Shown: piece after piece, positions 876 to 45,584 of the stretch | Layout of the letters: the number at the start of each line of letters is the position of its first letter | How positions within the stretch are numbered: position 1 is the first letter of the stretch | Assembly (NCBI GenBank): GCA_949841045.1 | Contig: CATKXS010000001.1 | Location: forward strand, 60,717 to 124,716 | Length of the DNA stretch: 64,000 bases | Direction: 5' to 3' | Source of the DNA: an uncultured Clostridia bacterium | Lineage (GTDB): Bacteria; Bacillota; Clostridia; Christensenellales; UBA1242 | Notes under the pieces: generated by a model | Databases searched by the model: none | What the model was told of the DNA's origin: nothing | What the model saw: the letters and a program-made list of their open reading frames with translations, nothing else | Program-made: the position numbers and the translations under genes

Positions 876-944
876 ATGAAAAAGTTTATTGTAAGTTTAC
901 TTGGCATTTTTCTGCTCTTTGGTGCGTCAGTTTTAACAGCTTGT
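876..944 (+). other. lipoprotein signal peptide with lipobox (L-T-A-C) of giant ORF 1
   Basis: MKKFIVSLLGIFLLFGASVLTAC has a KK n-region, a hydrophobic core, and LTAC with Cys23 encoded by TGT 942-944. Confidence 0.75.
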
Positions 945-9900: not shown

Positions 9901-12900
9901 TTGTCGGTGGTGCAATAGGACTTACTGGCTATCAAACAAATATCAGAGATTTGGGCGTGGTTATTAACTCAAACTCAGATTCTCATATTATCGCAACAAA
10001 ATATTATGCAGGCGGTGTAATTGGTCAATCATTTGGTTCAAACAGCAGAATTTTCGCAACCTATGACGAAGCGACTCAAGCTGTTATTGAAAACAAAATG
10101 GCTAATTTCTATGCTGGCAAAAATGATTTTGAACGCGGAAATCTCAACTTGTTCAATTTAAGTGGAACAAACTATAAACAAGTTTACATTGGCGGACTTA
10201 TCGGTGCAGCCTTTGGAGGAACACTTGAAGTATCATATTCAAAACTCAATGTAACCTCTATGACAGCTGACTATGCAGGTGGTCTCGTTGGTGGACTTAT
10301 GCTAGAAGATGCTGCGGCATATTTAGTAGATGAAAGAACTTCTATTTATTCAACATATTTCATTAAGGAAGCTTATGCAACCGGTGACGTACGTGCAAGA
10401 GTTATGGCAGGCGGAATAATTGGAAGAATAGTAAGTATTAAAGCACGCGTTGCTCTTCAATCGGTCAACGCAGTAAACTATTTCACAACTTATGATTATA
10501 TTAATGGCGTTTATGCTCCTATAAATCCAGAGATGTCAAACTTCTCAGAGATTTACAATGTAAATGCCTTTGTCGGTGAATTTGCAAAATATGATAATAG
10601 TGGCGAGATTGTGCCAGATGACCTGAACAATAAGACACTAGGCAGTGGCGAAAATACAGCCAAACCTACAGATTTTACCAACTATATTATCTTCTTGCAA
10701 AAAAATGCAGAGGGAGATAGCAGTACTGGCGAGACAGGAGCTCTTCCATCAGTTGGCTTCTATCAAGGTTATTATACTGGCAGAAATGGCGAGCCTATTT
10801 CTCTTAATATGTTTGGAAAAATCGACAGCAATATTAACACTAATCCTTATACTAGAGATGATGCTAAACTTGCGTTTGCAATTTCATCTCCAAACCTCTA
10901 TGACGGAGCGTCTGTCGGTTATCAATATACAAATGTAGCCTTTCTCGGCTCAAATGTTTGGGATGTTGCAAACTGGAAACAGGATATTGATGAACTTTTC
11001 CCAAGCATAAAATATAAGCGCTCTAGCAGTGTGTTATATCTTGATAATTACAATATAGATACAGTATTTAAGAAAATGGCGGGCGGAAATTATACTGTTT
11101 ACATTCGTGGACGTGTAGCCGAAGGCTCTGAGGAATGTGCAAACATTGACCTTATTAAGTACTATAACAATGGCGGAGCTGAATACATTGAAAGATTCTC
11201 TGGTAGACTTAGAGGTGGAATTTATCCAGTTGATAGTGACCAAAAGGTGAAGATTATCACTGACAGAACTTTCATTAAATCAGTTGCACCTGGCTTCTCA
11301 GCTACAAATGTTGAAGTTGTCTATACAAAGGAAAGTTATGAAAATTCTGCAACGTCGAATTTAGAATCAATCGCAGTTGGCAGAGTAGAAAATGATGGCG
11401 GACTCTTTATTGCAAGCGAAGCGGACAATGTTGTAATTAATAATCTTAAACTTATTCTTAATGATGAAATCAGTTTTTATTTTGCTAATGGAACAAGTAA
11501 TCAAGTGAAGTATGCAGGTCTTGTTGCTCCAACTTTGGTTAGCTCAACTCTATCTGGCATTTCAATTACAAGAACAACTGCCGGTGGCGGTTCTTCTGGT
11601 TACATAATGAATGTGAATGGCTCAAAACAAGAGGAAAGAGATTTACTTTATGTTGGTCTTATTGCTGGTTCAATTTCACAAAAAAGTACCGTTTCAACAA
11701 TGGTGATTGAAAATGTTTCTTTAGATTTTGAGGGTGACTTAATTTCTATTAATTCTGACTTAGGATTCCAAAATTATAATATTGGTACATATTTTGGTTT
11801 AGCAAATAGAGCATCAAATGCTCAGCCACTTAGAGTATCAATTTCAAAAATTGAAAGAAGTGGAGCGGTTGTAGGCAACCAAAAACCTCAAATTATTATT
11901 CAAGGTGAAAAAGCTGTCAACAGTGTAAATATTGGGGGATATATTGGTGTTGTTGCCGATGAAGGCAATGCTGGAATTGATGATTTGAGCTCTTATGCTG
12001 GAGATGCAGTTAGCGCAAATGTTACATTATGTATTTCACCTGAAGTTAAAGGGTTAATCAATGCTGGTGGAATTATTGGTTCTTTAAATAGCGCTTTAAC
12101 ATTCATTGCAGGGCAGTCAACTGTCAATGAAAGTTTAATTATTGAAAGAGATGCAAACAATGTCAATGCTGGTGGCTTTGCTGGTTATGTATCTGGTGGA
12201 GCGTTATCTGTAAATGGATTTGCAGGAATTGAATTTGGTGTATTAAATAAGGTGAATGATGCTTATAATAAAGGAACACAAATTCTCAGCGAAAAGGAAG
12301 AATTAGACGGAGGTTATGACGAAAGTTACAATGTAGAAGTCACAGGTACTGCAAACATTGGCGGACTTGTCGGTATGGCTTCAACTAGTGTTTCTTATGA
12401 TAATTCTTCAAGAGTTACTATTAATGCTAGGGTAGAAGATGACGAAAAAGTTTATGTAAATACCTTTGCTTTAAGTGCTAAAACTGTTAATGCGGGTTCA
12501 ATTATCGGCTCTTCAGTAGCAAGAGTTAAAATTTCTGCAAATGTACTCTCTAATACAGAATTTAGAGTAAAATCAACAAATGCACAAACTAATGTTGGTG
12601 GTATGGTTGGTTCAATTGTGATGCCAAATATCAGCTCTTCAGATAGTGATGTAAACATAAATACAGACTCACAAATAGGTGACACTGGTAAAACATTATT
12701 CTATGACGGTGCAACTTATTCAAATTCTAATAATTTATGCTTTGGTGGAATTCTTGGACATTATAGTGGTGAAAATGGTACAAAATTAACAATCACTAAC
12801 GCTTACTTTGGTGGTGTAGCAAAAGTTTATGGTACAAATTCTAATGGAGGAGCTGTTACTTTCGGTGGCATTCTTGGAAATGCATATATACATACTGGAG

Positions 12901-15900
12901 CAACAAATTCACAAGTTGTATTAAGTTTGAACTACACATATGGCGACATGTTTGTTGAGTATGGAACAACTCTTTCAAGTTTAAAAACGTATAACTTTGG
13001 TGGGGTTATTGGTAATCTTTTGAGTGGATTGACTTACAATGTTACTTCAAACTATTCACTTACAACCTCCCATAATGCTCGTTACAACTCTTCGATAGAA
13101 GTGTGTACACAAAATGCTCTTTTTGGAAATGGTGGTAGTGTGTTTGATGAACAAGGAAATACTTTGGGCAATAACGCTTATAACCACTCAGTTTCATTAT
13201 GTAACGACGAGTATGGAAATGATATAAGTTATAATGACTCAGCATACAATGGTTATCAAGGTGCTAGGCAAGACAACAGTTTTGTTAATACTCACTCGGA
13301 CATTGCAAGAATAATTAGTAATAATATAAGAGGTTATACAACCATTAATACTGGTCATAAACTAAGTCCAGGTAGCATTCAACTCGGAAGTTTATCTGCT
13401 GAGTTAAGCGATGCTAGTACATTTAATGGAATTACTTACTATAATATCAATAATGAAATCTTAGACCCAGGCAAAGACCAATTTGAAGAACTTAGGAATG
13501 TCGCTCTCTTTGGAAATGGTGGCAAATTAGCCTATAGAAATGAGGGAAGCTTAACAGATTTTATTACAGCAAAGTCATCTATAATAGGACTTCTAACTGG
13601 TTATTCTTCTGTTTCTGGTTTTGTACTTGATGTAAATGCTTCATATGATGTTGCCATGGCAGCTGGTGGAGAAACAGCGTTTGTTGCCCCTCTTGTAAGT
13701 CAAATGGAAGAAAACTCTATTGTTTATGCAATAAATGTGCAAGGAACATTGGACTATGGCGGTAGTGGTAACGCTATTGTTGCAGGGCTTGTGGGAAATC
13801 TTGTTTCTGGAAAGATTTTCGACTGTTCAACAGATTTGGATATAAGCTTTAGAGGAAGCCAGTTACAGAACAACGATAATGCTGGTATATTTGGCATAGC
13901 ATATATGTCGGTAAGCGAAAAACCTGATGATGATTATAGGTTGATTGAAAACACTTACTCAGCGGGTAGTATAAAGACCTATATTTCAATAGATGTCTAT
14001 GCCTTCTCAAACGAAGCAGGCTCATCAGATAAAACAAAAGTATACAACTGTTATACAATTACAAAACTTGATTTGAAAGATTATACTCGTGAGTCATTAG
14101 CAAGTAGTGGATATTTCTACACATTTGGCAAAGGTGTGAATGATAAAACATTTAATAGTTGCTTCTATGATAAAGATGCACTTAATGCAAATCTTACTTC
14201 AGGCGGCAAGTCAACAAATGTTTCTCATACAGAACTTCGCAACAATAAATATGGTGATAAAAATACTACTATATTTGCTAATGCAAGCAAGTGGACAACA
14301 GATTATGCATTTAATTATGGTTATCCAACTCTTAAGTATGGATACTTAAATCCATCATCTTATGTTGTACTTGAAAAATCAGAGTCTAAACTTAAACGAC
14401 TTCTTGATAAAGGGCAGTCAATTCTTGACCCTACAACAAGTAAATTATCAGCAGATGGAAATAACAACCTTTATGACAACTTTGTTGTAGAAAATAGTTA
14501 TTCTCGTCTTCCAAATGGCGAACAACCAAAATTTATTGATAATAAACTTACTTACGCAGGAAATGATTGCTATTACATGATTCCAAACGGGGCTATCCTT
14601 GCCAAGATGAATGAGACTTATACTTTAAATAAAGAAAATGTAGGACTTAAAAACAACTTCATTTTGAAATATGATATTAATCTTGCAAATACTTCACGTT
14701 TTACAACATCATTTAGTTATGATACAAATGTTAGTGCAATCTCAGGCTTAGACTTTACTGGAACATTTGATGGGCAAAACAAGACAATTCAAAATTCTAG
14801 AATAAACTTGTTTAGGTCGTTAAATGAAGCAACAGTAAGAAATTTAAGAATTACTGATTTCGCAAGTGCAGATAAACCAACACTTGCAAATGAAATCATA
14901 TCTTCAACTGTTTCAAATATGACCTTATCAGGTGATATAAAGGGTAGCACATCATCAATTAACATTGGCGGTTTGGCTTTAACTGCTATTAATTCTAAAC
15001 TTGAAACTATTACAAACCTTGTTTCAATAAATGTTAATGTTCAGACGAAACTTACAACTGAAATTAGTATTGCAGCAGGTGGACTTGTTGGTATTATTTC
15101 AAATACTCGAGTTGATTTCTGTTCTAACTATGGACCTATAAATGTCAGAGTTAATAATGATGGTAAGATGCTTGCAGTAGGTGGACTTGTTGGTGTTATG
15201 TATGACGGAAATGAAAATAATACTATCAGTTATAGTTACAATTCAAGTTCAGTTCTTGGTAACTATGTAAATGATTCTTCAGAGCAAACAACTCAAGGCT
15301 TGTTCTTCACGGGCGGACTTGTAGGTTATAATGTTGGTGGAGTGATTAAAAATAGTTACAACACTGGTATGGTTAAGTCTGGTAATAAATCAAACACGGC
15401 AGGAACAGAGTCAGATATATCAGAAAATAACAACAAAATAACTGCAGTAACGACAACAGGTGAAGGTTTTCAAACCGAAACAAAGCAGTCAGAATTCTGG
15501 CTTATTAATAATGAGAAAACTACCTTTAATGAAGACCAACTTTATTCTTCATATGCTGGCGGTATTGCCGGTTATATAGCAGGAGGCGTTGACAACTGCT
15601 ATAATGAAGGTACAGTTGAAGCGTTAGGAGAAAATCCACATACCAAGTGGATATGGAGAAAAGTTAATGGAGACCCTGTTGTTGCAAGAGCTGATATAAC
15701 TAGACTCTCTTATGAACAAACTTCTAATAGAAATGTTTACGCGTATGGTATTGGTGCAACCAATAACAGTTCAACCATATCAAATTCAACTATAAGGTTG
15801 TATAATATGGATTCAGACTACTCGACAATTTACAGCAATGGTGCTTCACGAGATAGTGGAGAAATTTATTGGAGAACATTTAAAGATATTATAGATAGTG

Positions 15901-18900
15901 GGGTAATGAATACATTCTATCAAGGTGAAAAGGCAATTTATTCTACGCTACATCTTTGGCAGAATCTCCCTGATATAAATATTTGGTTAGGTGCTATAGT
16001 TAGTTGGCTTTATCTCTTTGATTGGACACAGACTTGGATTGGCCGTCAAGTTGTATTTACAACTACATTTCAAATTCCTAAAGTGAATGAAGTTGCATAT
16101 GATAGCAATTTTGATGAGGTTACTGATGCTAATTTTAATTCTGACAAACCAAATCCAAATGAATGTAGCGAGTCCAACGTTGCACCTGTTAATACACTTT
16201 CAACAGATGCTCTTGGTCTTGCAATAGGATATCAGATAACTTTCCATAGTAAATACAAAGTTCAACAAAATAAATTTACTTACGCTATTAAGTCTGGTAC
16301 AGCTAATTATAGTAATTTTAATGATTTGATAAATGCTAAATGGAGTGACAAAAAGAATGAATTAGATGAAGGAATTTATGAGGATGGTGATTCTGTATCT
16401 TCAGAAAATGTTATTTCTCAAGCTTATAGCTCGTCATTGCCAGAAAATTTATACTATAAAGAGAGTTATGAAAGGAGACCGTATGAATATGACGAATTTA
16501 ATAAGTCTTTTAACTGGAACAATTTATGTTCAAATGAATATAAAGAAGGTGAAGTTAAAGTCGTTACCGATTACGATAGTTCAACAATGCGGAATATAAA
16601 AGAAAACACAAGAAGTGTGGAAGAAGAAGGCGAGATAAACAGTTTGAAAATTGCTGGTAACCCTTATTATATTCTTGACCATAATAATGTAACTTCAGTT
16701 CTAAATTCTGGTATTTTTATATCTAAACCTCAAAAAGTAAGATTTTCTTCTGATAAATTGCCTTATATAGCCAATAAGGGCCTATATTCAATGGAAATTA
16801 AGGGGCATAATGAATTAAATCCAATCATCACCTCAGTATCTCAAGAAGGTAATGAAACTATTGTTGAGTACAAAGTGAGCAGTGCTGAAGAAATTAACAT
16901 AGCTAATTGCGAAGTTATTATTTCAATGAGTTATGAGCAAGAAGTAACTTTTGATTTAAGTTCTTTAAAATATAGTTATTATGATGATTATTCAGTTGGA
17001 ATTGAAATTGGCTTGATGGATTATAGCGTTCTTGACCAATACACTTTATATTATGAAAATAGTAAAGAGCCGGATGGATTTGCAGTTAAAAACAATGTCA
17101 TTAGAATTCGCAAAGAAGGCGCAAGCAATGTTTCCGATACTGATGATGCAAACGAAAACTATATCTATCTATTCTATGATGAAGCTGAAGGTAAATTTGT
17201 TTATGTTCCTAATGCTGGTTTAATCACTTCTACAGGTAAAAAGATTGAAAAAATTAATAAGTCAAATTATTCTTTACGCGGTGATGAAAACTTTATAGAG
17301 AATGTAAAGAATATTATAAATGAACTTAAAGGAAAAACTTATTATTCAAGAGTTACTAAACAATCTTCAACATATGCAAGCTTGTTCTCAAATAATCAAT
17401 CATTATTTACTAGATACTATGAAAGCAATGGAAATTATACCGCTGGAGAGAGCAGTAAGGAAAATGCTGTAATTAAGTATGGTTCTACTGTGTCTAATGT
17501 AATTGGCGCTATGATTTATGAAAATGACGGATATGTTGTGACACTTGACAATAATGGAAAAGATATTATAGCGTTGAATGGCACAACTCCAGTAATGAGT
17601 TATAATAGTAGTACCGACTTATGGTATAGTGATATTAATTCAATAGAAGGCATGAGTGCTCAAGTTGTAGGCAATAAACTTAAGATATTGTCTTCAGAAA
17701 GCACAGAAGCACAAAATAAGATTCAAACATATCTTAATAAACTTATGTTCATCTCTGATGATTGGTCTGAGAAAGAATTTATTAGTAAATATGAAAATAT
17801 TAGAACTTCCATCAGATATAATATTCCAGAGAATGAATCGTATGGCGTTGATTTTATAAGAACAATCAAACATGACTGGATATATAACGCTGATAATAAG
17901 TTTACATTCAAAGAAATTAATAATCGTCTTTATATCGCAGTTGATAGTGATTATACTGCTTTAACAAAATATAGTTTAGGCGGTGTCACAGTAAGCTATG
18001 GCGAAGAAAATATTGAAATTACAGATAGCTATACTTCTAAGATAACAAGCTTCAGTCTTAGGTCGCCGGGACGCGTTAGTGTAGAAATATCATTCTCAAA
18101 AAATGGAACGACTCACACATTTAAGAATTTTACAAGCTCTAATAACCATAGTGCAAGTTTTGATAAAGAAATGAGTGATGCTATTACAGACGGTATCTTC
18201 AATATGCAGTTGAAATATTATCCATCATATACAACTAATTCAGTGAGTGTTGATGAGGGGTATAATTATCACTTAGTACTTGAAAAGAATGGACAAATAT
18301 ACTATGTTGAAGCTTCATTTGATGAAGAATTGATTAATAATGCACAATCTGGAATTACTGCTACAATTGATTCTGTTTCAAAAATTTATACAAGTTCGAA
18401 TGGAAATCTTCTTATAAGAGCGGAGTATCTTGAAAGTAAAACACAAGAAGGAGCAGTAAGCAAAACAAAGGTTTATTCTATAAATGGAACTAAAGTTTTA
18501 ACTATAAATGAAACTGAAGGTGAATTAGAATATACTGTTTATTATGATTCTGACGGTAATCTTCTCTATACTCCTGCAGTAGATAAAGATGGAAATCCTA
18601 TTAAAGATGAACACGGAAATGATGTGCCTCCTGTTGAGGGTGATACTACTGAAAGCAAGCCAAGTAATATTTATTACCGAAGCAACATATTCAGACCTGG
18701 AACTGCTAACCCAGAAGTTATTGACCTAATAGGAGATGGATACATTAGCAGTGTTGATGACCTGCATGACCCTTTGATTTTTAATGAATCACTCAAGATG
18801 ATTAGTGATGAACATACAGAAACGATAAAACCAGCTTCTTCAGAAGGTGCGGGTGATGGAGTGTCTGTAAAAGTTGCAAGAAGATATGTTTATCTTGAAG

Positions 18901-20288
18901 CAGATTATAAAATAATAGAAAACGCTACTATAAAGAACAATAAAGTTTATTCTGAAGATATTAAGCTATATTCAGAAGTGCAAATGAGAGAAATATCATA
19001 TAAAGAATTCTTGATGCCTGAGTATAATATGATAAATATAAGCTTTGCATATAATGGTATGAATTTTGATAAAAATGAACTCTCCAGCTTCTTTGTTGGA
19101 GCAGAGCTAATTGAAGATAAATATTACAAAGTTCAAGGTAATGCAATTGACATTTGTTTACGTAATAATGAAGAGCAAGGAATTATTAGAGGCGTTTTAG
19201 AGGGAAGTGTAAGTGAAAGCGACGTGACATTAACTGCTACTGGAACTAAAGAAGAATTTAACGTTTTACTTCGCTCAGATATTTCAGTTGATGAACAATT
19301 AAATTTCTCTGGTAAATATAATATCATAGGTGATGGTTACTATTTAGCTTTCAAATCAAACACCTTATATGCAACGATTTATAACGGAAATGGAAAATCA
19401 TTTATAAGTAATATTCTCTTCTTGGGAGATACTTATGGAGAAAAGTCGTTCTTAGTTGGAAACACCAACAATTCTACTAAATTTTATGATGTCAAACTTT
19501 ATGGAAGTGTAACAAATGCAAATAATAATAATTCTGTAATTATCAATGGTGCAAGTCAGATATTGATAGATTCATACTTGTCAATCAATGGTTATAATAC
19601 AGATAAAAATATTACGTTATATGGTTCATGTTCTTTAATTGACAGTGAAAAATCAGCAAATAAAGGTGTCATAGTAACTGCCAGAGGAAAAGATGGTTTT
19701 GGCTATGTAAATGGTGGCACTGGTAAAAAAGGTGAAGACGGTGGCAAAATTACAGCTGGTTCTGAAAATTCGAAATTAAAAATAAAGAATGCAGGTGTAA
19801 TTGTCCTAGGAAGCGGTGGTAGTGGTTATCATGGAAAAGAAAAAAGCTTTAATTACAGTCAAGCTATGGCAGAAGGTATTTCACAATATGCTGGAGGAAT
19901 CAAGGGCTCGGATGGTAAAGTTGTTGGAATAGACAATATTGAAGGGCAAGGAATGATTCATACACTTACTAATAGTGAATCAGGAAAAGCTGGCTTTATT
20001 CAAAGAGCAAGATTGGAAAATGACGTTGTACAAAAAGGGCATCTAGTACTTGTAACTAAAACGATTTCTGGCATTCTTGATGCGCAAGCTGTAGTTATCA
20101 ATGATAGCAGTAGGATTAAATATGCCAATAGTTCTGAGTTCCAAAAAGTGACGATTAGTTACGACAGAGCTGATTGCAAGCAAAATTTAAATAGCTTATT
20201 ATTCGACTTGTTTAATGTTGATAAAGTCTCAGGTTCTAAACTTGGATTGAAATCGTCTTATAACAAAGATGGTACATTACTTAAATAG
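876..20288 (+). CDS. giant surface lipoprotein (6,470 aa) with a Big_2-like N-terminal domain and multiple GLUG-motif beta-helix-like modules
   Basis: The frame is open for 19,413 nt from ATG 876 to TAG 20286-20288, with a strong RBS and a lipobox. Residues about 28-120 (LTLSQDTVAIEL...GSAQVVVRG...YINVNV) resemble a Big_2 Ig-like fold. More than 35 G-G-[LIV]-[AIV]-G type motifs are present. All reverse-strand ORFs inside it are short shadows. Confidence 0.9.
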   Translation: MKKFIVSLLGIFLLFGASVLTACNKGGSSLTLSQDTVAIELFADDEDSGYELVTATLSGVKEGSIQASARSGFENIVKVTQTRRSSNSISIRIEALEEGSAQVVVRGAPGNHVKYINVNVFSYVSSMSQVAEDGDKKNNFLIRGSENILDEHKLISFAPSDKSLYSLTWDLSEEMAGVQDLELEGNTLTVGNSFPVGQEVKLVATTERGVSTTITLPVIDKIEDEINFQFSYSQNSSFEDITSDNNSFNIVPNIPSDASYQGYILLDYAGDLEITPYVLNSAGRLTDDIQVLENGRYNDKPLYTVYASKDKSNINDDYKVGFKIGYKNYNYFLDTIENNPIIIKAREMVNSIIVSTRDANNIAGSTQTLYTNYADSSDSTINGQRFDLSITPTTVVDMSNKYRISVSRWRLGGEVSNGCPVEIWYRDAVNGNGWRQIDLREDENHNFTTQSDMLPNVKTLYIKASEGLKVQSNSDYRITFTSDDNPNISTYFNLKLVKSASISEFVFNDASFKVDSSELTQVYKKVFNLKGQTSIDGLKIRSESGNVTFGNIIQVASDGESVDFEVSFTLNNSSYGVTSQDSYYIVHENGLVSSEYSIDIFLPLKQASMQLDVAENKSQSVIDYALSENVYDDFGTSLGLSQSSLSSLTLKNNTTTPLIYSYNKIGQNSAVANISVKFYDYEGFAGTVSDFKALSALEIIRGAQTDSSNVVYFTSDFSSIVTKGVGRTYAIVSFTGKGVGDNVDANGNVTFTRIIYIESLVTPDGINIVPDGDKYVTLYSPDTLATSDESLTRKDVRIRFSKGDITYKTTANVEFISGRNVMGSQSVSADGTSISWAQGRYSLSNVNVSGEGITFNIIAEDTYGENIFTDTLNVHYVIRDEEQKRIYDIYTTIEITIKNAQRVESLKWKTYDADGLYFEVGDNSPQYLLLDISPTNARNRGVAYLITDEKGAERNSFITVGEGVSSDTLAVNLESSIREGMTGYIYVLPADAIYNNQIKYYYVDSKGVEQSNSISYNLLAENYDYLVSSAYFKSNATGGDVRDVKFSDILIKIKVTVADGKSFDYAYRIYDASSFASIRSDLYYRIMNDIDLSGQSRGAITNFSGGLEGKTSDITIKLDGDNFARTLTSSGEIRNLTFIGNVQGNGFIVDVNNGAIKNVKIDVNGRKASTLQAGVLGGGIAGENNNLIENASVLGLTITARTSDSYVGGIAGQNDGRIEASRVEFYNLEKGEDENGNMTYGVNTFTGNYVGGLVGLIGARSSINFSYAYDYTLADGSSKCLNATTISGAFAGTVTGSGATITNSFSVIGEDLPSDNYENVASSVTITRSYMSYFSGEYYSRYFDENGRNNSSSVVFVQRDNSQFKAYVNGGNPYLPQIMQDERVTTVDYSVASVKDDQDYNKALAVNSTRGIVFFYKLENNASDLTSSEMADLNELNTISLSQLVGEEVNRNVIVSSSNSQIIKTVGSSLIVLKTGEVTLTLSSKQDVTLSKDIKVNVVYAMSDMVISWADNAGRVTTIQDGTMLALQKTTSRTYNISYDKTEVYLGSLASRYILEQNEITINVKNTLANGAEGNIVDYEISGSDLKLITGSDSGTTNFEITPVVFADRTLQSAIDGKFKRNFTLNPIDGVIDFDIAGDELPITPSIKGEMEVRIRTTDVSDSVYPVISFNGDTLIAKEENGVYRYSIRGREDAILEVTVNRIKAEEGSNNLNTYTYVVTFSVCPDKRAEISEDMEFDVYIMSKSGNTSKEENGGEFKLTLTRQNFTNIDVSNKKISESHYYMSGDNVVEVHRANELTSVLAPGNSSILEVNVNPSYAYYDYAEITYSGATVSNAVNIEVMTPYAGSDENFMRRPSNGDIDVVANALRFYPDSDEKGTLYYKLWIDTTVNRDTTLQFRIAFYEKGGKEITYVNYFVSISYLTEPVVTIDGQTTAYIAKGSTAIVKIDVLADQSIDSLMLDGENIKDVTLTQPSKPVVDTVRGIKTYEARLTTFVTASAENSTIYILAQISRELNGSKEIKNSVATGVIVNFKIDDDIIINDRPDGVITLWQGVPRAIGVDYNILPESYNLASDEESEKAIAYLQGERNIFKDAGFYPAKAGQIGGQNGYVSLDRLELENYDYFVNYKYDENKELQVKNLLERIFVISGNERIPLADSSVNTPVSYSFDEITNSISMTGTRISSGTRMVLETYVSAGGITQTIDTYFTINVEAYSDPDLPLLIKNASDFENLRPTENSTEIVTNDYILTNDIVLENYTSFNTDLIRSLDGNGYTIFIKSYDVEGEGTLNLALFNRVLENTLLKNVRVNLYNGGQLTIDIDKHSDINIAGLAIENSGIITNCEVVAFYTESRAMGLALAQNACEPHNGKAGFNVKYIRGENTTESIFITDNPNWSTQMAGFVISNSGSITNSRVGGDSITILGSERTVNGKPNGYTDASTLELGTFYMIGQGNMAGFVITNSSGNISTCYVKNIDMENQSNSTSYYAVGFVGTNSANISVSYIEGVPTPKSQEDSALYSAYAYEGSSIKSKMGYVVGFVYRNNNSINDCYSNILIANSEASNSVYLASGFVYENVGTIENAYSASQIKNSMNTQMNFSGVDKNGYLLANGTYINCYFFNKLYENSEEPTDNTTETLNNTGAMLIPSPDNASDFYGFAIASGERDGIWRVVEDEGISLITTEILSISHRYIYYVDGDNFEGVTGEDEIGKYILPYSTLSYTNSSLEIDTSLGGSFNPIIISDAEDFVEVSGTSQSSYIREYFNSSAMWGTYRLVNNISLTSMSGGESLNNIPSSVKAFSGTFYGNNFTISGISLATENPAVSIGLFKSIEKRGRNNNPMIIDLNLAIDMIDGSVASMAGGLAGYIKDAIIVGVNVNYGESGKVTALNFAGGIAGLVFGDNKIRSITVTNPNITAKKYLNDDNSQDDYFFSDENRIAGSLQALRTSVENNLNYNTLVSSALITSLEKYSYAGGIFGLADIFATNNINFDINQADNYVLNNVRVNGNVYVEGQIVGGAIGLTGYQTNIRDLGVVINSNSDSHIIATKYYAGGVIGQSFGSNSRIFATYDEATQAVIENKMANFYAGKNDFERGNLNLFNLSGTNYKQVYIGGLIGAAFGGTLEVSYSKLNVTSMTADYAGGLVGGLMLEDAAAYLVDERTSIYSTYFIKEAYATGDVRARVMAGGIIGRIVSIKARVALQSVNAVNYFTTYDYINGVYAPINPEMSNFSEIYNVNAFVGEFAKYDNSGEIVPDDLNNKTLGSGENTAKPTDFTNYIIFLQKNAEGDSSTGETGALPSVGFYQGYYTGRNGEPISLNMFGKIDSNINTNPYTRDDAKLAFAISSPNLYDGASVGYQYTNVAFLGSNVWDVANWKQDIDELFPSIKYKRSSSVLYLDNYNIDTVFKKMAGGNYTVYIRGRVAEGSEECANIDLIKYYNNGGAEYIERFSGRLRGGIYPVDSDQKVKIITDRTFIKSVAPGFSATNVEVVYTKESYENSATSNLESIAVGRVENDGGLFIASEADNVVINNLKLILNDEISFYFANGTSNQVKYAGLVAPTLVSSTLSGISITRTTAGGGSSGYIMNVNGSKQEERDLLYVGLIAGSISQKSTVSTMVIENVSLDFEGDLISINSDLGFQNYNIGTYFGLANRASNAQPLRVSISKIERSGAVVGNQKPQIIIQGEKAVNSVNIGGYIGVVADEGNAGIDDLSSYAGDAVSANVTLCISPEVKGLINAGGIIGSLNSALTFIAGQSTVNESLIIERDANNVNAGGFAGYVSGGALSVNGFAGIEFGVLNKVNDAYNKGTQILSEKEELDGGYDESYNVEVTGTANIGGLVGMASTSVSYDNSSRVTINARVEDDEKVYVNTFALSAKTVNAGSIIGSSVARVKISANVLSNTEFRVKSTNAQTNVGGMVGSIVMPNISSSDSDVNINTDSQIGDTGKTLFYDGATYSNSNNLCFGGILGHYSGENGTKLTITNAYFGGVAKVYGTNSNGGAVTFGGILGNAYIHTGATNSQVVLSLNYTYGDMFVEYGTTLSSLKTYNFGGVIGNLLSGLTYNVTSNYSLTTSHNARYNSSIEVCTQNALFGNGGSVFDEQGNTLGNNAYNHSVSLCNDEYGNDISYNDSAYNGYQGARQDNSFVNTHSDIARIISNNIRGYTTINTGHKLSPGSIQLGSLSAELSDASTFNGITYYNINNEILDPGKDQFEELRNVALFGNGGKLAYRNEGSLTDFITAKSSIIGLLTGYSSVSGFVLDVNASYDVAMAAGGETAFVAPLVSQMEENSIVYAINVQGTLDYGGSGNAIVAGLVGNLVSGKIFDCSTDLDISFRGSQLQNNDNAGIFGIAYMSVSEKPDDDYRLIENTYSAGSIKTYISIDVYAFSNEAGSSDKTKVYNCYTITKLDLKDYTRESLASSGYFYTFGKGVNDKTFNSCFYDKDALNANLTSGGKSTNVSHTELRNNKYGDKNTTIFANASKWTTDYAFNYGYPTLKYGYLNPSSYVVLEKSESKLKRLLDKGQSILDPTTSKLSADGNNNLYDNFVVENSYSRLPNGEQPKFIDNKLTYAGNDCYYMIPNGAILAKMNETYTLNKENVGLKNNFILKYDINLANTSRFTTSFSYDTNVSAISGLDFTGTFDGQNKTIQNSRINLFRSLNEATVRNLRITDFASADKPTLANEIISSTVSNMTLSGDIKGSTSSINIGGLALTAINSKLETITNLVSINVNVQTKLTTEISIAAGGLVGIISNTRVDFCSNYGPINVRVNNDGKMLAVGGLVGVMYDGNENNTISYSYNSSSVLGNYVNDSSEQTTQGLFFTGGLVGYNVGGVIKNSYNTGMVKSGNKSNTAGTESDISENNNKITAVTTTGEGFQTETKQSEFWLINNEKTTFNEDQLYSSYAGGIAGYIAGGVDNCYNEGTVEALGENPHTKWIWRKVNGDPVVARADITRLSYEQTSNRNVYAYGIGATNNSSTISNSTIRLYNMDSDYSTIYSNGASRDSGEIYWRTFKDIIDSGVMNTFYQGEKAIYSTLHLWQNLPDINIWLGAIVSWLYLFDWTQTWIGRQVVFTTTFQIPKVNEVAYDSNFDEVTDANFNSDKPNPNECSESNVAPVNTLSTDALGLAIGYQITFHSKYKVQQNKFTYAIKSGTANYSNFNDLINAKWSDKKNELDEGIYEDGDSVSSENVISQAYSSSLPENLYYKESYERRPYEYDEFNKSFNWNNLCSNEYKEGEVKVVTDYDSSTMRNIKENTRSVEEEGEINSLKIAGNPYYILDHNNVTSVLNSGIFISKPQKVRFSSDKLPYIANKGLYSMEIKGHNELNPIITSVSQEGNETIVEYKVSSAEEINIANCEVIISMSYEQEVTFDLSSLKYSYYDDYSVGIEIGLMDYSVLDQYTLYYENSKEPDGFAVKNNVIRIRKEGASNVSDTDDANENYIYLFYDEAEGKFVYVPNAGLITSTGKKIEKINKSNYSLRGDENFIENVKNIINELKGKTYYSRVTKQSSTYASLFSNNQSLFTRYYESNGNYTAGESSKENAVIKYGSTVSNVIGAMIYENDGYVVTLDNNGKDIIALNGTTPVMSYNSSTDLWYSDINSIEGMSAQVVGNKLKILSSESTEAQNKIQTYLNKLMFISDDWSEKEFISKYENIRTSIRYNIPENESYGVDFIRTIKHDWIYNADNKFTFKEINNRLYIAVDSDYTALTKYSLGGVTVSYGEENIEITDSYTSKITSFSLRSPGRVSVEISFSKNGTTHTFKNFTSSNNHSASFDKEMSDAITDGIFNMQLKYYPSYTTNSVSVDEGYNYHLVLEKNGQIYYVEASFDEELINNAQSGITATIDSVSKIYTSSNGNLLIRAEYLESKTQEGAVSKTKVYSINGTKVLTINETEGELEYTVYYDSDGNLLYTPAVDKDGNPIKDEHGNDVPPVEGDTTESKPSNIYYRSNIFRPGTANPEVIDLIGDGYISSVDDLHDPLIFNESLKMISDEHTETIKPASSEGAGDGVSVKVARRYVYLEADYKIIENATIKNNKVYSEDIKLYSEVQMREISYKEFLMPEYNMINISFAYNGMNFDKNELSSFFVGAELIEDKYYKVQGNAIDICLRNNEEQGIIRGVLEGSVSESDVTLTATGTKEEFNVLLRSDISVDEQLNFSGKYNIIGDGYYLAFKSNTLYATIYNGNGKSFISNILFLGDTYGEKSFLVGNTNNSTKFYDVKLYGSVTNANNNNSVIINGASQILIDSYLSINGYNTDKNITLYGSCSLIDSEKSANKGVIVTARGKDGFGYVNGGTGKKGEDGGKITAGSENSKLKIKNAGVIVLGSGGSGYHGKEKSFNYSQAMAEGISQYAGGIKGSDGKVVGIDNIEGQGMIHTLTNSESGKAGFIQRARLENDVVQKGHLVLVTKTISGILDAQAVVINDSSRIKYANSSEFQKVTISYDRADCKQNLNSLLFDLFNVDKVSGSKLGLKSSYNKDGTLLK
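4400..4800 (+). repeat. GLUG-type glycine-motif block 1 (coding, giant ORF 1)
   Basis: LGGGIAGENNN, YVGGIAGQNDG, YVGGLVGLIGA and ISGAFAGTVTG, following the module head YYRIMNDIDLSG...FSGGLEGKTSDITI at 4122. Confidence 0.7.
7850..8625 (+). repeat. GLUG-type glycine-motif block 2 (G-F-V variant)
   Basis: IAGLAIENSG, MAGFVISNSG, MAGFVITNSSG, AVGFVGTNSAN, VVGFVYRNNNS and ASGFVYENVG, following the head NDYILTNDIVLEN...SLDGNGYTIFI at 7602. Confidence 0.7.
9434..10440 (+). repeat. GLUG-type glycine-motif block 3
   Basis: MAGGLAGYIKD, FAGGIAGLVFG, YAGGIFGLADI, IVGGAIGLTGY, YAGGVIGQSFG, YIGGLIGAAFGG, YAGGLVGGLML and MAGGIIGRIVS, following the head GTYRLVNNISLTS...FSGTFYGNNFTISGI at 9171. Confidence 0.75.
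11511..13030 (+). repeat. GLUG-type glycine-motif block 4
   Basis: YAGLVAPTL, YVGLIAGSISQ, NIGGYIGVVAD, NAGGIIGSLNS, NAGGFAGYVSGG, NIGGLVGMAST, NVGGMVGSIVM, FGGILGHYSG, FGGILGNAYI and FGGVIGNLLSG. Confidence 0.7.
13775..13905 (+). repeat. GLUG-type glycine-motif block 5 (short)
   Basis: IVAGLVGNLVSGKIFDC and NAGIFGIAYMS. Confidence 0.5.
14961..15612 (+). repeat. GLUG-type glycine-motif block 6
   Basis: NIGGLALTAIN, AAGGLVGIISNTRVDFCSNYG, AVGGLVGVMYDG, FTGGLVGYNVGGVIKNSYNTG and YAGGIAGYIAGGVDNCYNEG, following the head NFILKYDINLAN...FTGTFDGQNKTIQN at 14651. Confidence 0.75.
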
Positions 20289-20648
20289 TAGGTAGGCTAA
20301 AAGAAGGGTGAGCAGGGATGCTGCGAAGGCTGATAGGAAAGTCGTAAGTACGGCTTGCCAGAGGCGAGGGGGATTTTCTCCCTCCCTTTTTTTATTCGTT
20401 TCAGCCTCTAAAATTTCACTTCCATAGGGCAGAAGGCAGAGGCAATACACGCCGTCATCGTCATATTTGATTGAAATATATTCTTGGCGTTCAAGATAAA
20501 TCAAAATGTTGTCCAGCCCGTCCAAATCGACACGATATTTATTAGGCATGGCAGAAATAATGTCCTTCGCTTCCACTATATTGAAAGCTCCATTTGGACA
20601 TTCCTTTGCGAGTATTTTTAACACTAGTTTTGATTTTATATCAAGCAT
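20277..20648 (-). CDS. small winged-helix-like protein with a C-terminal transmembrane tail anchor (123 aa)
   Basis: I trimmed track ORF 20277-20840 to the internal ATG at 20648. The upstream 64 codons are Phe/Ile/Ser-rich junk that runs across the divergent gene. The sequence is MLDIKSKLVLKILAKECPNGAFNIVEAKDIISAMP...LDNILIYLERQEYISIKYDDDGVYCLCLLPYGSEIL, followed by a basic linker and the hydrophobic tail LWQAVLTTFLSAFAASLLTLLLAYLLFK. Its stop overlaps the end of giant ORF 1 by 12 nt. Confidence 0.6.
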   Translation of the reverse strand: MLDIKSKLVLKILAKECPNGAFNIVEAKDIISAMPNKYRVDLDGLDNILIYLERQEYISIKYDDDGVYCLCLLPYGSEILEAETNKKREGENPPRLWQAVLTTFLSAFAASLLTLLLAYLLFK

Positions 20649-20724
20649 TAAATAATTTTTGCCACTGTGGGGTAATTGTAAACTTAAATTATGTATGTTT
20701 TTTAAAGAAAATGGCAATAAAAAA

Positions 20725-21093
20725 ATGAAAATTATGCAAGAACGAAAGGAAAAATTGGTTTTAAAATATTTGTGCAGGGTATGTTCTGGAAAGAAAACAT
20801 ATCTTATTTCTCCGCACGATATAGCAAAAGAGGTGTGCAATAAAGTTATATTATCAGTGAACGAAATTGATGAGATTATGACAGGGCTTTCTATGCAAAA
20901 TTATATTGATTTTGTAGTGTCTGACAGTAAAAATGGCTATTTTTATTGTGTAAAACTCAAGAAAAAAGGGCAGACCTATTTGTCTGATGCAAAAAAGCAG
21001 AAAAAAGCACTCATGATGCTTGTGCTTCGAAGCATGTTTTTGGCAACAGTCAGTTTTGTATTTGGACTTATTCTAAAGGCAATTTTTAAGTAA
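20725..21093 (+). CDS. paralogous small winged-helix-like protein with a C-terminal transmembrane tail anchor (122 aa)
   Basis: I trimmed track ORF 20659-21093 (TTG start) to ATG 20725; ATG 20734 is an alternative. The sequence is MKIMQERKEKLVLKYLCRVCSGKKTYLISPHDIAKEV...IDEIMTGLSMQNYIDFVVSDSKNGYFYCVKLKKKGQTYL, followed by a KK-rich linker and the tail ALMMLVLRSMFLATVSFVFGLILKAIFK. It aligns with the divergent neighbour at KLVLK.L..C, DI, YI, Y.C..L and G..L, and has the same architecture. No clear SD is present. Confidence 0.55.
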   Translation: MKIMQERKEKLVLKYLCRVCSGKKTYLISPHDIAKEVCNKVILSVNEIDEIMTGLSMQNYIDFVVSDSKNGYFYCVKLKKKGQTYLSDAKKQKKALMMLVLRSMFLATVSFVFGLILKAIFK

Positions 21094-21190
21094 ATTTTCT
21101 TGCGAAACAATGTAAGATGTTGTACAATATATGTATTAAAAAAATGTCAACTTATTTGCGATGGCAAATGTTTAAACAAAGGGTTAAATA

Positions 21191-23143
21191 ATGGAATATG
21201 ATTTAGTATCAAAATATACGCCTGCAGGCGACCAGCCAGAGGCGATAAGAGAACTTGTGCAAGGTTTTAAGGAAGGTTTGAAAGAACAGGTATTGTTGGG
21301 AGTGACTGGCAGTGGTAAAACTTTTACTATGGCAAACCTTATTAAAGAGATGAAAAAGCCAACATTGGTTATTGCTCATAATAAGACGCTAGCTGCTCAA
21401 CTTTGCAATGAATTTAGAGAATTTTTTCCGCACAATCGGGTTGAATATTTTGTGTCCTATTATGATTATTATCAGCCTGAGGCATATATTGTTTCCTCTG
21501 ACACTTACATTGAAAAGGATATGGCAATCAATGATGAAATAGACAAATTGCGTTCAAGTGCGACCTCGTCTATACTTGAAAGAGATGATGTAATCATTGT
21601 TGCCTCTGTTTCTTGTATTTATGGTCTTGGAAATCCTGAAGAATATTACAATCTCCACATTTCTCTAAGAGAGGGCGATTTAATAGACCGTGACGAGGTT
21701 ATTTCAAGACTTATTGATATTCAATACATGCGAAATGACATAGATTTTAAGAGGTCCACTTTTAGGGTAAAAGGCGATACGCTTGATATATTTCCAGCAA
21801 ACCAGTCAGAACTTGCTATAAAAGTTCAGTTTTTTGGCGATGAAATTGATAAAATCTATAATTTTGACCCTGTAAGTGGTAATTTAGTAAACGAACTTAA
21901 GCATGTGGCTGTTTATCCTGCAACGCATTATGCTGTAGGAAAATCGCGCATGGAAAATGCTTTAAGACAGATAGAAGTAGACCGCGAGTTTGCTATAAAA
22001 GATTTTGAACAAAATGGCAAGCTTATAGAGGCCGAAAGAATTGGACAACGAGTCGCTTATGACATTGAAATGATGAGAGAAGTGGGCTACTGCAGTGGAA
22101 TAGAAAATTATTCAAGATACTTTGATGGCAGAAAACCTGGTGAGCCGCCTTATACTTTGATTGACTATTTTCCAAAGGATTTTTTAACTATTATTGATGA
22201 AAGCCATATGACCCTTCCTCAGATTAGGGCGATGTATAATGGTGATAAGGCTAGAAAGCAGTCGCTAGTTGAATATGGCTTTAGACTTGAAGCGGCACGA
22301 GATAATAGACCATTGACTTTTGATGAATTTAATACAAAACTTGGACACGTTATGTATGTGTCGGCTACACCAGCACAATATGAACTTTCAAAGGCTGGAC
22401 AAGTTGTCAAGCAGGTAATTAGACCGACAGGTCTTCTTGACCCTATCATTGAAGTAAGGCCAATAAAAAATCAAATTGAAGAACTTATGGTTGAAATTAA
22501 AAAGACAACTCAACGAGGTGCCCGCGTGCTGGTAACAACTTTAACCAAGAAAATGGCAGAAAGTTTGACTGTTTATCTTCAAGAGCATAATTTTAAAACC
22601 AAATATATGCATTCAGAGATAGACACTATGGAAAGGGTAGAGATTGTCAACGGACTTCGAGCTGGTGAGTTTGACGTACTTGTTGGTATCAACCTTTTGC
22701 GTGAAGGACTGGATATGCCAGAGGTCGAACTTGTGTGCATACTTGACGCTGATAAAGAAGGCTTCTTGCGTAGTGAGGGTGCACTTATTCAAACGATAGG
22801 AAGAGCGGCAAGAAATGCAAACGGGAGAGTAATAATGTTTGCAGATGTTATAACCGATTCAATGCAGAGGGCAATAGATACAACAAAAGAGAGAAGGGCG
22901 CTTCAAGAGGAATTCAATAAAAAGCATGGAATTGTTCCTAAGACAATTATCAAAGATATTAAAAACACGCTTGAGATAACCAAAAAAGTATCTGACACAA
23001 AACTCAGAAAAGATGAGATTCCTTCGCAGATAGAAAAGCTCACAGCAATGATGAAAGTTGCCTCAGGCGCTCTTGACTTTGAAAGAGCGATTGAACTTAG
23101 AAATGAGATTCAAAAACTTAAAAAACGCTTAAATGGTAAATAA
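21191..23143 (+). CDS. uvrB: excinuclease ABC subunit B
   Basis: 650 aa. It has the N-terminus [11 protein letters not shown], Walker [13 protein letters not shown], a DESH box ([11 protein letters not shown]), helicase C motifs, and a C-terminal UVR domain ([19 protein letters not shown]). Confidence 0.97.
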
Positions 23144-23267: not shown

Positions 23268-23735
23268 ATGGTTAAAATTAATGAAGAAGATGCAAAACTT
23301 TTGAAGCTTGCGTCACAAATTAAACCTATGGTTAGAGCTAAAAATAGAAAAAGAGCTTTAAGTTATATTGAGCCTGTTGATTTAAATGAAAATTATTTGA
23401 AAAATCCAAAGTTATGTTGCAAAGCTCCAAAAGTAAAGGTAATTGCAACAATCATGACAAGTCATGCAAATGCTATAAATTCAATTTTTACTTCAAGCGA
23501 GAAAGAAGTGTTGACTCAAATTGGAGAAAACTGTGATGAAGAAGTACTTGAAAATGCAATTGGTTTTCAAACTAAAATGATTGGATATTCAGATATGAGA
23601 AATCTTCAATTTTCAAGAACTGAAATTTATGGACTTGAAAAGGAAGAAAATATTCCAGCAAGAATTAAATCTCAAAATGTAATTTTGAATGGTAAAGAAT
23701 TTTCAAATGACGAGATTGGCGAAATTGAAATTTAA
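23268..23735 (+). CDS. hypothetical protein (155 aa) inserted between uvrB and uvrA
   Basis: It has a strong RBS (TAGGAGG), its own promoter and its own terminator. I recognise no motif. It is acidic and has no TM segment. Confidence 0.7.
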   Translation: MVKINEEDAKLLKLASQIKPMVRAKNRKRALSYIEPVDLNENYLKNPKLCCKAPKVKVIATIMTSHANAINSIFTSSEKEVLTQIGENCDEEVLENAIGFQTKMIGYSDMRNLQFSRTEIYGLEKEENIPARIKSQNVILNGKEFSNDEIGEIEI

Positions 23736-39169: not shown

Positions 39170-39221
39170 TCGCTGTACGAACAATCGTTCAAGTGTTCGT
39201 ACACCAATTAATTTGGTGGAG
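39155..39221 (+). repeat. 66-nt repeat element, copy A (contains CGAAC-N4-GTTC)
   Basis: TTTGGAGCGAATTAGTCGCTGTACGAACAATCGTTCAAGTGTTCGTACACCAATTAATTTGGTGGAG is about 84 percent identical to 45519-45584. It can form the hairpins AGCGA/TCGCT and GTACGAACA/TGTTCGTAC. Confidence 0.85.
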
Positions 39222-42231: not shown

Positions 42232-42262
42232 ACTTTAGATAAAACTAAAATTTGGAGGGAAT

Positions 42263-45518: not shown

Positions 45519-45584
45519 TTTGGAGCGACTTAGTCGCTATGCGAACATTCGTTCAAATGTTCATACACTAAATGTTTGGTGGAG
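45519..45584 (+). repeat. 66-nt repeat element, copy B (contains CGAAC-N4-GTTC), forming the 5' UTR of the 191-aa gene
   Basis: TTTGGAGCGACTTAGTCGCTATGCGAACATTCGTTCAAATGTTCATACACTAAATGTTTGGTGGAG. Its GGTGGAGG end serves as the SD for ATG 45590. Confidence 0.85.

Follow-up and report, generated by a model that had tools for sequence, protein, structure and literature searches.

Two small genes, here called A and B, lie back to back in the window, a 64,000-nucleotide stretch of a contig (CATKXS010000001.1) from an uncultured Clostridia bacterium. Both ORFs of the original prediction are found (A 123 aa, B 122 aa), and they sit between a giant ORF on one side and uvrB and uvrA on the other (Table 1). 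Both are real genes under purifying selection: comparison with nine relatives gives a dN/dS of 0.08-0.14 (A) and 0.03-0.14 (B). In most B homologs translation begins at an in-frame M4 (MQERKEK, 20734); with this conserved start B would be 119 aa long and the A/B spacer would measure 85 nt instead of 76 nt. The overlap of A with the giant ORF at 20277-20288 is present as first described, except that each strand contributes three sense codons and the stop where four codons and the stop had been given. The shared FK ending is likewise present in A and B, and its conservation is confined to the B family.

Table 1. Coordinates of the A/B locus and its neighbours in the window.
Feature	Position	Strand	Description and evidence
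Giant lipoprotein-type ORF	876..20288	+	6470 aa; convergent neighbour; context, not an established system member
Coding overlap, 12 nt	20277..20288	convergent	giant ORF ...TLLK-TAG; gene A ...LFK-TAA
Gene A	20277..20648	-	ORF, 123 aa; A-type family member; 264 homologs at 60-100% identity
A, predicted tail-anchor TM helix	20283-20363		residues ~96-122
A, Lys/Glu-rich linker	20364-20429		residues 74-95
Intrinsic-terminator-like hairpin	20366..20393	+	GAGGGGGATTTTCTCCCTC then T-run; deltaG -18 kcal/mol, extended fold
A, predicted winged-helix domain	20430-20648		residues 1-73
Divergent A/B spacer	20649..20733		must hold both promoters
Inverted repeat I6	20656-20664 / 20712-20720		in A/B spacer
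Promoter-like site for A	TTGCCA 20717-20712; CATAAT 20693-20688	-	18 nt between boxes; promoter scan
Gene B	20725..21093	+	ORF, 122 aa from 20725; B-type family member
B, predicted winged helix	20734-20961		wing 3 residues longer
B, basic juxtamembrane stretch	20962-21009		
B, predicted TM helix	about 21010-21087		LRSMFLATVSFVFGLILKAIFK; nearly invariant
B-uvrB spacer	21094..21190	+	97 nt
Promoter-like site in B-uvrB spacer	21100-21128	+	TTGCGA, 17 nt, TACAAT; promoter scan
uvrB	21191..23143	+	conserved partner downstream of B; domain calls in related loci; window's own uvrA
uvrA	23808-26645		after uvrB; domain calls

A and B were proposed to be paralogs, and profile comparisons agree. BLASTP detects no significant similarity between A and B (E 0.26). 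Comparison of 35-sequence profiles by hhalign nevertheless yields a probability of 94.6% (E 6.4e-8, 97 columns); the A-type HMM matches B at 2.9e-13, and its B-type counterpart matches A at 4.4e-16. The merged MAFFT alignment shows full-length collinearity, essentially recovers the landmark pattern noted at the outset and contains common L13, C17, L52, Y68, C69 and G76. The two are ancient, distant paralogs. The family has no match in Pfam, NCBIfam, PADLOC, PHROG or Rfam, so the initial failure to place the pair in a named family stands. It is an undescribed family of ~120 aa proteins in uncultured gut Clostridia. At E <= 1e-3 the family search returned 498 representatives, of which almost all measure 115-128 aa and match over their full length. 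The ~500 clusters (counted at 50% identity) have a common architecture and form two groups, A-type and B-type, with 57 and 46 classified members, respectively. The pair is neither mobile nor associated with defence.

The C-terminal helix of A and B is predicted to be a true transmembrane tail anchor. Its 19-residue Kyte-Doolittle maximum is 2.23 in A and 2.16 in B, and its hydrophobic moment is low. In 103 family members the protein ends just 0-7 residues after the last hydrophobic run, which leaves no extracytoplasmic domain, as had been claimed along with the single anchor. A basic linker, which fits the positive-inside rule, is found in the family. Small-xxx-small motifs are present in the TM helix of 57/57 A-type and 40/46 B-type sequences.

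The cytoplasmic domain is modelled as a winged helix with a PadR-s2/MarR-like fold, in line with the fold suggested from the sequence landmarks. AlphaFold places a winged helix (element order H1-b1-H2-H3-b2-b3) before a long C-terminal helix in both A (pLDDT 75.5) and B (pLDDT 83.7). In Foldseek, A matches MarR, PadR, AspA and TubR, and B matches PadR-s2/LmrR with a TM-score of 0.6-0.7 (rmsd about 3 A over about 104 residues); PadR-s2/LmrR and MarR regulators are the closest structures to the two models.

Within this clade the giant gene shows conserved synteny: 52 of 81 loci have an ORF of 2000 aa or more upstream, and in 51 of those 52 radC is located between this ORF and A. Distant lineages (35-61% GC) have no giant neighbour beside the pair and show the order A->B->uvrB instead. 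The suggested tie between A/B and the giant gene is thus not upheld by the neighbourhoods. The predicted overlap of the convergent transcripts does hold, as the only terminator-like site of the giant gene is inside A, about 80-105 nt into it. This strong hairpin lies 78 nt beyond the giant ORF stop and is antisense to linker codons of A (KKREGENPPR). A hairpin with deltaG <= -10 and a T-run, ending 103-122 nt from the A 3' end, is present in 43 of 72 clade species and in 9 of 324 random 250-nt windows. The stem sequences vary among species. Of the 7 loci in which A has no convergent neighbour, 6 lack the hairpin. The upstream gene, which is radC in most relatives and the giant ORF here, would terminate at this hairpin antisense to the A linker. 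The contact between A and the giant gene may be a side effect of the tight packing of convergent genes.

The deepest conserved neighbour of A and B is uvrB, not the giant surface gene. In this clade A is divergent from B and B is followed by uvrB; A adjoins B in 73 of 81 loci, and in 71 uvrB lies downstream of B and on its strand. The distance from B to uvrB does not exceed 150 nt in 49 of the 81 loci and is 8-14 nt in about 12. In the 97-nt spacer of the window there is no terminator-like site on the + strand and no Cheo/LexA box. The promoter-like site here belongs to uvrB itself, an observation that speaks against the reading favoured below. All five distant B-carrying lineages (GC content 35 to 61%) have uvrB immediately 3' of B, and UvrB is 64-73% identical to that of the window in the three measured (L092, L094, L095). 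Distant lineages arrange the genes as A->B->uvrB(->uvrA), and the junctions frequently overlap or span 3-14 nt; A and B are tandem in L091, L092, L094, L095 and L096, where the genes overlap or are 4-11 nt apart. Since these lineages keep A->B->uvrB without a giant gene, uvrB/uvrA is the conserved partner. Part of the synteny within the clade is simple inheritance, since the clade comprises a narrow group of uncultured Clostridia. Obligate 1:1 pairing is not proven, given several species that have B-uvrB but lack A within 10 kb (L045-47, L063, L081, L088) and two distant loci, one with A beside secA and no B (L093) and one with B and no A (L098).

A small regulator heading an operon is a classic autoregulator arrangement, and the placement of A and B fits this layout. 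Every close structural neighbour of the pair is a DNA-binding regulator, the first helix of B is basic, and the B wing retains SD.KG, which resembles the DxR wing of MarR. A sense-oriented TGGCAA(A/T)AAA-like box is found 15-20 nt upstream of each ATG, in 17 of 73 species for A and 19 of 81 for B (about a quarter; background 0.107 per 50 nt); the spacer alignment covers 45 species. However, the net charge of the putative recognition helix H3 is -4 for A and -3 for B, with family means of -1.0 (A-type) and -2.4 (B-type), whereas values of +1 to +3 are seen in the helices aligned to it from two MarR-family proteins. The wing tip of A is also acidic (DDDG), and the TM helix of B is almost invariant. 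The acidic recognition helices make classical operator binding doubtful, and with it both the DNA binding originally envisaged and the reading of A and B as operator-binding repressors. Together with the acidic A wing and the near-invariant B TM helix, they suggest winged helices that are mainly protein-binding, or DNA-mimicking.

We tentatively favour a reading in which A and B form a membrane-anchored heteromer with a functional link to uvrBA, at somewhat below even odds. A and B would act jointly as a hetero-oligomer on the cytoplasmic membrane face, held together by TM helices with small-xxx-small motifs. They would head the uvrB-uvrA transcription unit, as A->B->uvrB->uvrA in distant lineages and as B->uvrB in this clade, and would belong functionally with uvrB-uvrA and nucleotide excision repair. 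The winged-helix domains may tether a cytosolic partner to the membrane or sequester it there, and this partner would most plausibly be a component of the uvrBA pathway or one of its regulators.

The back-to-back pair of small genes beside uvrB, here called A (minus strand) and B (plus strand), is found in both the ORF listing and the raw sequence, as the original prediction had it. Most homologs of B start at an in-frame MQERKEK. The likely start of B is therefore 20734, which would give a protein of 119 aa and a spacer of 85 nt between A and B, not 76 nt. Each gene has ~260-310 homologs at 60-100% identity. These come from uncultured Clostridia MAGs throughout, and all are either unnamed or labelled "hypothetical." Against nine relatives, dN/dS is 0.08-0.14 for A and 0.03-0.14 for B. 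Both are evidently real genes.

Positions of the genes, cysteine codons and terminator-like site at the A/B locus. Positions are those of the window, except for radC, which is given for two related loci.
Feature	Position	Strand	Description
Gene A	20648..20277	-	123 aa (MLDIKSKLVLKIL...LLAYLLFK)
Gene B	20725..21093	+	122 aa
Giant ORF (first giant gene of the window)	876..20288	+	6470 aa
Cysteines of A, residues 17 and 69	20598-20600, 20442-20444		codons
Cysteines of B, residues 20 and 75	20782-20784, 20947-20949		codons
Terminator-like site	20366-20393		GAGGGGGATTTTCTCCCTC + T-run, 78 nt past the giant ORF stop
radC, locus L001	10311-11060		between giant gene and A
radC, locus L004	10296-11087		between giant gene and A

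A and B are conserved paralogs, as profile comparison has shown. In pairwise BLASTP the two do not match significantly, and hence profiles are needed. With hhalign the two are matched at 94.6% probability (E 6.4e-8, 97 columns), and the HMM of each subfamily matches the opposite paralog (E 2.9e-13 and 4.4e-16). When aligned jointly, the two proteins are collinear over their whole length from Met1 onward, and L13, C17, L52, Y68, C69, and G76 are common to both. The string of landmarks proposed earlier was essentially correct. A profile search of 1.84 billion cluster representatives yields 498 matches at E <= 1e-3, of which 159 reach E <= 1e-10. Nearly all of the 498 are 115-128 aa long and aligned over their full length. 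Among 103 members of the family, 57 are A-type, with a short acidic wing and an LPKGR motif, while 46 are B-type, with a wing that is 3 residues longer and an SD.KG motif. This split indicates that the duplication is old and that both copies were retained. No family in Pfam, NCBIfam, PADLOC, or PHROG matches the proteins, in agreement with the earlier failure to place them in a named family, and no Rfam family matches the locus. Only scattered sub-threshold matches to assorted winged-helix models are obtained when the 103 members are scanned singly. The best PADLOC match (LmuC, E 0.003, 15 bits) and the best PHROG match (E 0.002) are below significance, and tblastn finds nothing for B in phage and plasmid collections or for A in the plasmid collection. 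On these grounds, membership of any known family of anti-phage defence or phage proteins was rejected. A literature search found no account of such proteins. The family, its paired tail-anchored architecture, and its association with uvrBA are without description in Pfam, NCBIfam, or the searched literature. The fold itself is already known.

The AlphaFold models rest on alignments of 35 sequences and have a pLDDT of 75.5 for A and 83.7 for B. Both models comprise a winged helix (H1-b1-H2-H3-b2-b3, where H3 is the recognition helix) and then a long C-terminal helix. In Foldseek searches of the PDB, the neighbours of B are PadR subfamily-2 (PadR-s2) proteins (5h20, LmrR 3f8b/3f8f, and others; E down to 1.5e-4, TM-score 0.6-0.7, rmsd ~3 A over ~104 residues, C-terminal helix included), and the neighbours of A are MarR, PadR, AspA, and TubR (E ~2e-3). 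The winged-helix layout read from the bare sequence is borne out by these models and by their wHTH neighbours. The C-terminal helix is not amphipathic; its 19-residue Kyte-Doolittle maxima are 2.23 (A) and 2.16 (B), with a low hydrophobic moment. Across the family only 0-7 residues lie beyond this transmembrane (TM) helix, which agrees with the claim that an extracytoplasmic domain is absent, and the linker before it is strongly basic (+2.5 to +3.3). C-tail-anchored membrane proteins, as a topological class, lack a signal peptide and have one TM helix in the last ~30 residues and a cytoplasmic N-terminal domain. The hydrophobic C-terminus, minimal overhang, and basic linker place A and B in this class. 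They fit an N-in, C-tail-anchored topology, with A and B presumably inserted in the membrane. Within the clade of close relatives of the window's source, the TM helix of B is almost invariant and that of A is variable. The B-type consensus is lA.lSFivG.iLkaIF, and small-xxx-small motifs are present in the TM helix of 57/57 A-type and 40/46 B-type members. A cysteine pair, with one residue at the H1 C-cap and one in b3, is also conserved. The H1 and b3 cysteines are kept in 48/57 and 57/57 A-type and in 35/46 and 38/46 B-type members, respectively, and the pair could function as a thiol switch or form a metal half-site.

Several known systems resemble A and B in part. LmrR (3f8b) and the PadR-like protein of B. 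fragilis (5h20) are similar in size (~105-120 aa), and PadR-s2 arranges its elements in the same way, with one long C-terminal helix after the winged helix. The AlphaFold and Foldseek results place A and B with PadR-s2 in having a winged-helix core plus a single C-terminal helix in ~110 aa. However, the C-terminal helix of PadR-s2 is amphipathic and makes the dimer, whereas that of A and B is uniformly hydrophobic and of membrane type. PadR-s2 is one protein that forms homodimers, while A and B are two diverged paralogs with an acidic recognition helix. PDB-profile matches to LmrR are at E 0.06-0.5. A match of A or B to the PadR profile PF03551 is not listed at any E <= 10, and this profile is absent from the 25 families most frequently matched by the 103 members (E <= 0.1); by the curated sequence threshold A and B fall outside the PadR family. 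Judged from the models, the dimerisation helix of a PadR-like winged-helix protein has apparently turned into a C-terminal membrane anchor, and the protein has been duplicated into two conserved paralogs. The best PDB-profile match to MarR-family chains (E 1.6e-3) covers only H3 and the wing. MarR proteins have ~140-150 aa and dimerisation helices on both the N- and the C-terminal side of the wHTH; this family was rejected because A and B, at 120 aa, lack the helix pair N-terminal to the wHTH.

ToxR, TcpP, and CadC share with A and B a cytoplasmic N-terminal winged-helix domain and a single TM tether. In Vibrio, two membrane-bound winged-helix proteins, ToxR and TcpP, act together. In ToxR, TcpP, and CadC the wHTH is of the OmpR/PhoB type and is combined with a periplasmic sensor domain, whereas the winged helix of A and B is PadR/MarR-like, with doubtful DNA-binding surfaces, and only 0-7 residues lie outside the membrane. 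A ToxR-like regulator was rejected: Trans_reg_C is not reported, there is no sensor domain, and the single TM helix is left as the only common feature. RodZ is a membrane-anchored HTH protein that binds MreB and not DNA, and so provides a precedent for a membrane-anchored HTH that is used as a protein-binding module. Its HTH is of the XRE type, its extracytoplasmic part is large, and it has neither homology nor a common gene context with A and B. ElaB, YqjD, and YgaM of E. coli are small C-tail-anchored proteins that hold a cytosolic machine at the membrane. Like A and B, they end in a TM helix that is preceded by a cytoplasmic domain, but this N-terminal domain is DUF883 and not a winged helix, and they have no paralog pair and no uvrB linkage. 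SOS-induced division inhibitors of the YneA/SosA type are controlled by a LexA box and have an N-terminal TM helix and an extracellular C-terminal domain. The topology of A and B, with the TM helix at the C-terminus, is the opposite. This class was rejected on topology and because no Cheo/LexA box is found near A, B, or uvrB at up to two mismatches. Elsewhere in the window there are two Cheo/LexA-like sites with one mismatch each: CGAACATTCGTTCA (45542-45555) lies between divergent ORFs without a Pfam match (44804-45376, minus strand; 45572-46165, plus strand), and CGAACAATCGTTCA (39178-39191) lies just upstream of a PBP gene at 39277. Shuffled sequence has at least as many such sites in total as the window. 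Just upstream of rsmH and the FtsI-like PBP cluster is the gene for an 840-aa protein (35024-37546) whose N-terminal domain is CvpA (Colicin_V production), and two tandem Zn_peptidase_2 paralogs (41509-42979) come after that cluster.

Gene neighbourhoods were compared in the window and 80 related loci, one each from 80 species genomes, of 173 matched, retrieved with the B alignment. This retrieval is biased to one clade; alignment A2 was used, and the diverse alignment A4 has no conserved stretch. The 81 loci were analysed by tblastn, subfamily HMMs, and ORF lengths. A is divergent from B in 72 loci (55 with a spacer <= 250 nt) and in tandem with B in one; it is not found in the flank in eight, two of which are at contig ends. 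uvrB lies 3' of B on the same strand in 71 loci, with a gap <= 150 nt in 49 and of 8-14 nt in ~12. A radC gene (JAB domain, HNHPxG motif, 240-290 aa) adjoins A convergently in 51 loci, and its 3' end often overlaps that of A by 35-89 nt. In the distant lineages L092 (49% GC), L094 (61% GC), L095 (35% GC), and the SpoIVA-encoding L096/L097 (52% GC), A, B, and uvrB, in this order and with or without uvrA after them, are read from one strand. The A/B junctions in these lineages overlap or measure 4-11 nt, and the genes upstream of the pair are ordinary (4HBT thioesterase, homoserine dehydrogenase, cupin). The UvrB proteins of L092, L094, and L095 are 64-73% identical to that of the window. L091 has A followed by B, L093 has A and then secA, and in L098 uvrB begins 2 nt past B. 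The pair heads the uvrB-uvrA unit across lineages with 35-61% GC. Judged by gene order, the partnerships that recur across deep divergences are those of A with B and of B with uvrB, and they do not include the giant gene. The uvrB-uvrA gap holds a 155-aa ORF without a Pfam match in the window (23268-23735), is filled by a 105-aa ORF without a Pfam match in L010, and contains a Big_3 gene in L001-L003, where a NUDIX gene also lies between B and uvrB.

The predicted overlap of A with the giant ORF at 20277-20288 stands, although it consists of three codons plus stop on each strand and not four. The claim that the convergent transcripts overlap is supported and can be extended, because the hairpin and T-run of the convergent gene are located inside A. 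In the window this site is antisense to the codons of the linker KKREGENPPR and is the only such site downstream of the giant ORF. A hairpin with deltaG <= -10 kcal/mol and a T-run is present on the opposite strand, with its end 103-122 nt from the 3' end of A, in 43/72 clade species, compared with 9/324 random 250-nt windows. It occurs mostly where the convergent ORF overlaps or abuts A, and 6/7 loci in which A points the same way as the genes around it lack the site. Stem sequences vary, with examples being GAGAGGAT/ATCCTCTC, GCGAGGGGA/TCCCCTCGT, and ACGAGGAAAGGC/GCTTTTCCTTGT. RNAalifold finds no consensus in the MAFFT alignment of this hairpin, since the 3' arms do not line up in it; per-sequence folding and the random-window control were used in its place. 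A terminator for A itself within 250 nt is found in only 9/72 species. The upstream gene, whichever it is, evidently ends inside A, and its transcript would be antisense to ~110 nt of the 3' end of A in the 43 species. One stretch of DNA has two roles, as a protein linker on one strand and a terminator on the other. The variable, low-confidence linker of A is apparently co-constrained by the embedded terminator, and the dual role appears to be kept through coordinated changes in both stem arms. A second, weaker hairpin with a T-run (CAGACAAATAGGTCTG + CCCTTTTTTC; 20971-20986, minus strand) is antisense in the Lys-rich linker of B. No convergent gene needs it, and it may be a by-product of AAA/AAG codons.

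The original prediction connected the pair with the giant gene. According to this explanation, A and B regulate the giant surface-protein gene or are co-regulated with it, either as transcription factors or by antisense interference, to which the terminator inside A would be suited. The giant gene is syntenic in the clade, and an ORF >= 2000 aa (cut by the 10-kb flank) lies upstream in 52/81 loci. This was scored by ORF length within the flank, a better test than tblastn with the C-terminus of the giant ORF, which badly undercounted giant genes in relatives. Genes for large surface proteins with a C-terminal TM anchor also immediately precede A or B on the same strand in L093 (2705-6127, 1140 aa) and L098 (5566-10011, 1481 aa, overlapping B by 11 nt). 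However, radC is usually interposed between the giant gene and A and is the convergent neighbour in the 51 loci noted; it is missing in the window (20286-20290) and its nearest relatives L011-L016, and direct abutment of the giant ORF on A is therefore confined to that sub-clade. L045-L047 keep an upstream ORF of 1900-2242 aa but have no A, and at the distant loci L092, L094, L095, and L096 the pair is not flanked by a large surface gene. BLASTP finds no similarity between the giant ORF of the window and the large proteins of L093 and L098, which are alike only at the anchor (E 2.6e-6); their position could be a coincidence or a weak real association. No copy of A or B is found near the second giant ORF of the window (48240-58691). 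This ORF encodes 3483 aa and has no BLASTP similarity to the first. This comparison of loci does not support the proposed link, and we consider it very unlikely that the pair serves the giant gene. A less improbable alternative, though still an unlikely one, is that heterodimers or homodimers of A and B are a membrane-tethered transcription factor, a PadR-like autoregulator that also regulates uvrBA independently of LexA. The operator would lie in the spacer of the pair and/or the uvrB leader, sensing would take place within the membrane or via the cysteines, and the logic would be like that of ToxR/TcpP without the outside sensor. All of the good Foldseek neighbours are wHTH regulators that bind DNA, there are weak MarR profile matches, the genes come first in the operon before uvrBA, and a Cheo box is absent near them in the window. 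The conserved cysteines could be the thiol switch, and B has a basic H1 (+2.1) and keeps a Lys in its wing. A box resembling TTGNCAAWAA is found in sense orientation 15-20 nt before both ATGs in ~25% of species, but it could be a promoter or UTR element. The predicted DNA-binding function gains from the winged-helix fold but suffers from the charge of its surface. H3 is acidic in both paralogs (VDLDGLDNILIYLERQEY in A, net -4; LSVNEIDEIMTGLSMQNY in B, net -3), with family means of -1.0 for A-type and -2.4 for B-type, whereas the equivalent helices of the MarR-family proteins FabT 6jbx and 3nrv carry +1 and +3 in the same profile alignment, and the FabT wing +3. The A-type domain as a whole has a mean charge of -2.7, and the wing tip of A is DDDG. 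The acidic H3 of both proteins and the acidic wing of A argue against classical major-groove recognition; DNA binding seems possible from the modelled fold but doubtful from the surface charge. There is also no Pfam match to PadR or MarR, and an alignment of the spacers of 45 species reveals no conserved palindromic operator of the kind that PadR-s2 proteins, as soluble dimers, bind through recognition helix and wing.

A and B might instead be housekeeping membrane proteins, accessory to the envelope, division, or secretion, that are next to uvrBA only for shared expression or through an old neighbourhood. The A gene that adjoins secA in L093 without B or uvrB, the insertions of 0.4-2.5 kb that split A from B in ~17 clade loci, and the nearly invariant TM helix of B, which suggests an intramembrane partner, are consistent with this. 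A has a promoter-like site on the minus strand, and uvrB has one of its own in the window and at least three relatives, as read from their upstream sequences. No terminator is found in the B-uvrB interval. We regard the housekeeping explanation as unlikely, more so than the transcription-factor pair, because the adjacency of B and uvrB persists at 64-73% UvrB identity and 35-61% GC, often with gaps of 3-14 nt, and such conservation is unusual for functionally unrelated genes. Our preferred reading, which we put forward tentatively and at somewhat less than even confidence, is that the pair forms a membrane-anchored heteromer with a role tied to the uvrBA unit. The C-terminal helices of A and B would anchor this heteromer, and the acidic winged helices would act as protein-binding or DNA-mimicking modules and not as readers of operators.

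A more specific proposal, improbable as it stands, is that the two proteins are a dedicated, LexA-independent module for control or localisation of nucleotide excision repair. As a tail-anchored heterodimer, they would keep UvrB/UvrA, or else a regulator of uvrBA, bound to the membrane and would free or activate this partner upon a membrane or thiol signal, read via the invariant TM helix of the B-type proteins or via the conserved cysteine pair. If so, the envelope would be connected with DNA repair in anaerobic gut Clostridia in a way not known before. Excision repair is usually regarded as purely nucleoid-based and LexA-controlled. If the pair does act on it, a membrane-linked layer would be added to this pathway, and a function would be provided for ~500 clusters of proteins, unnamed or called "hypothetical protein" where sampled, in abundant uncultured gut Clostridia.
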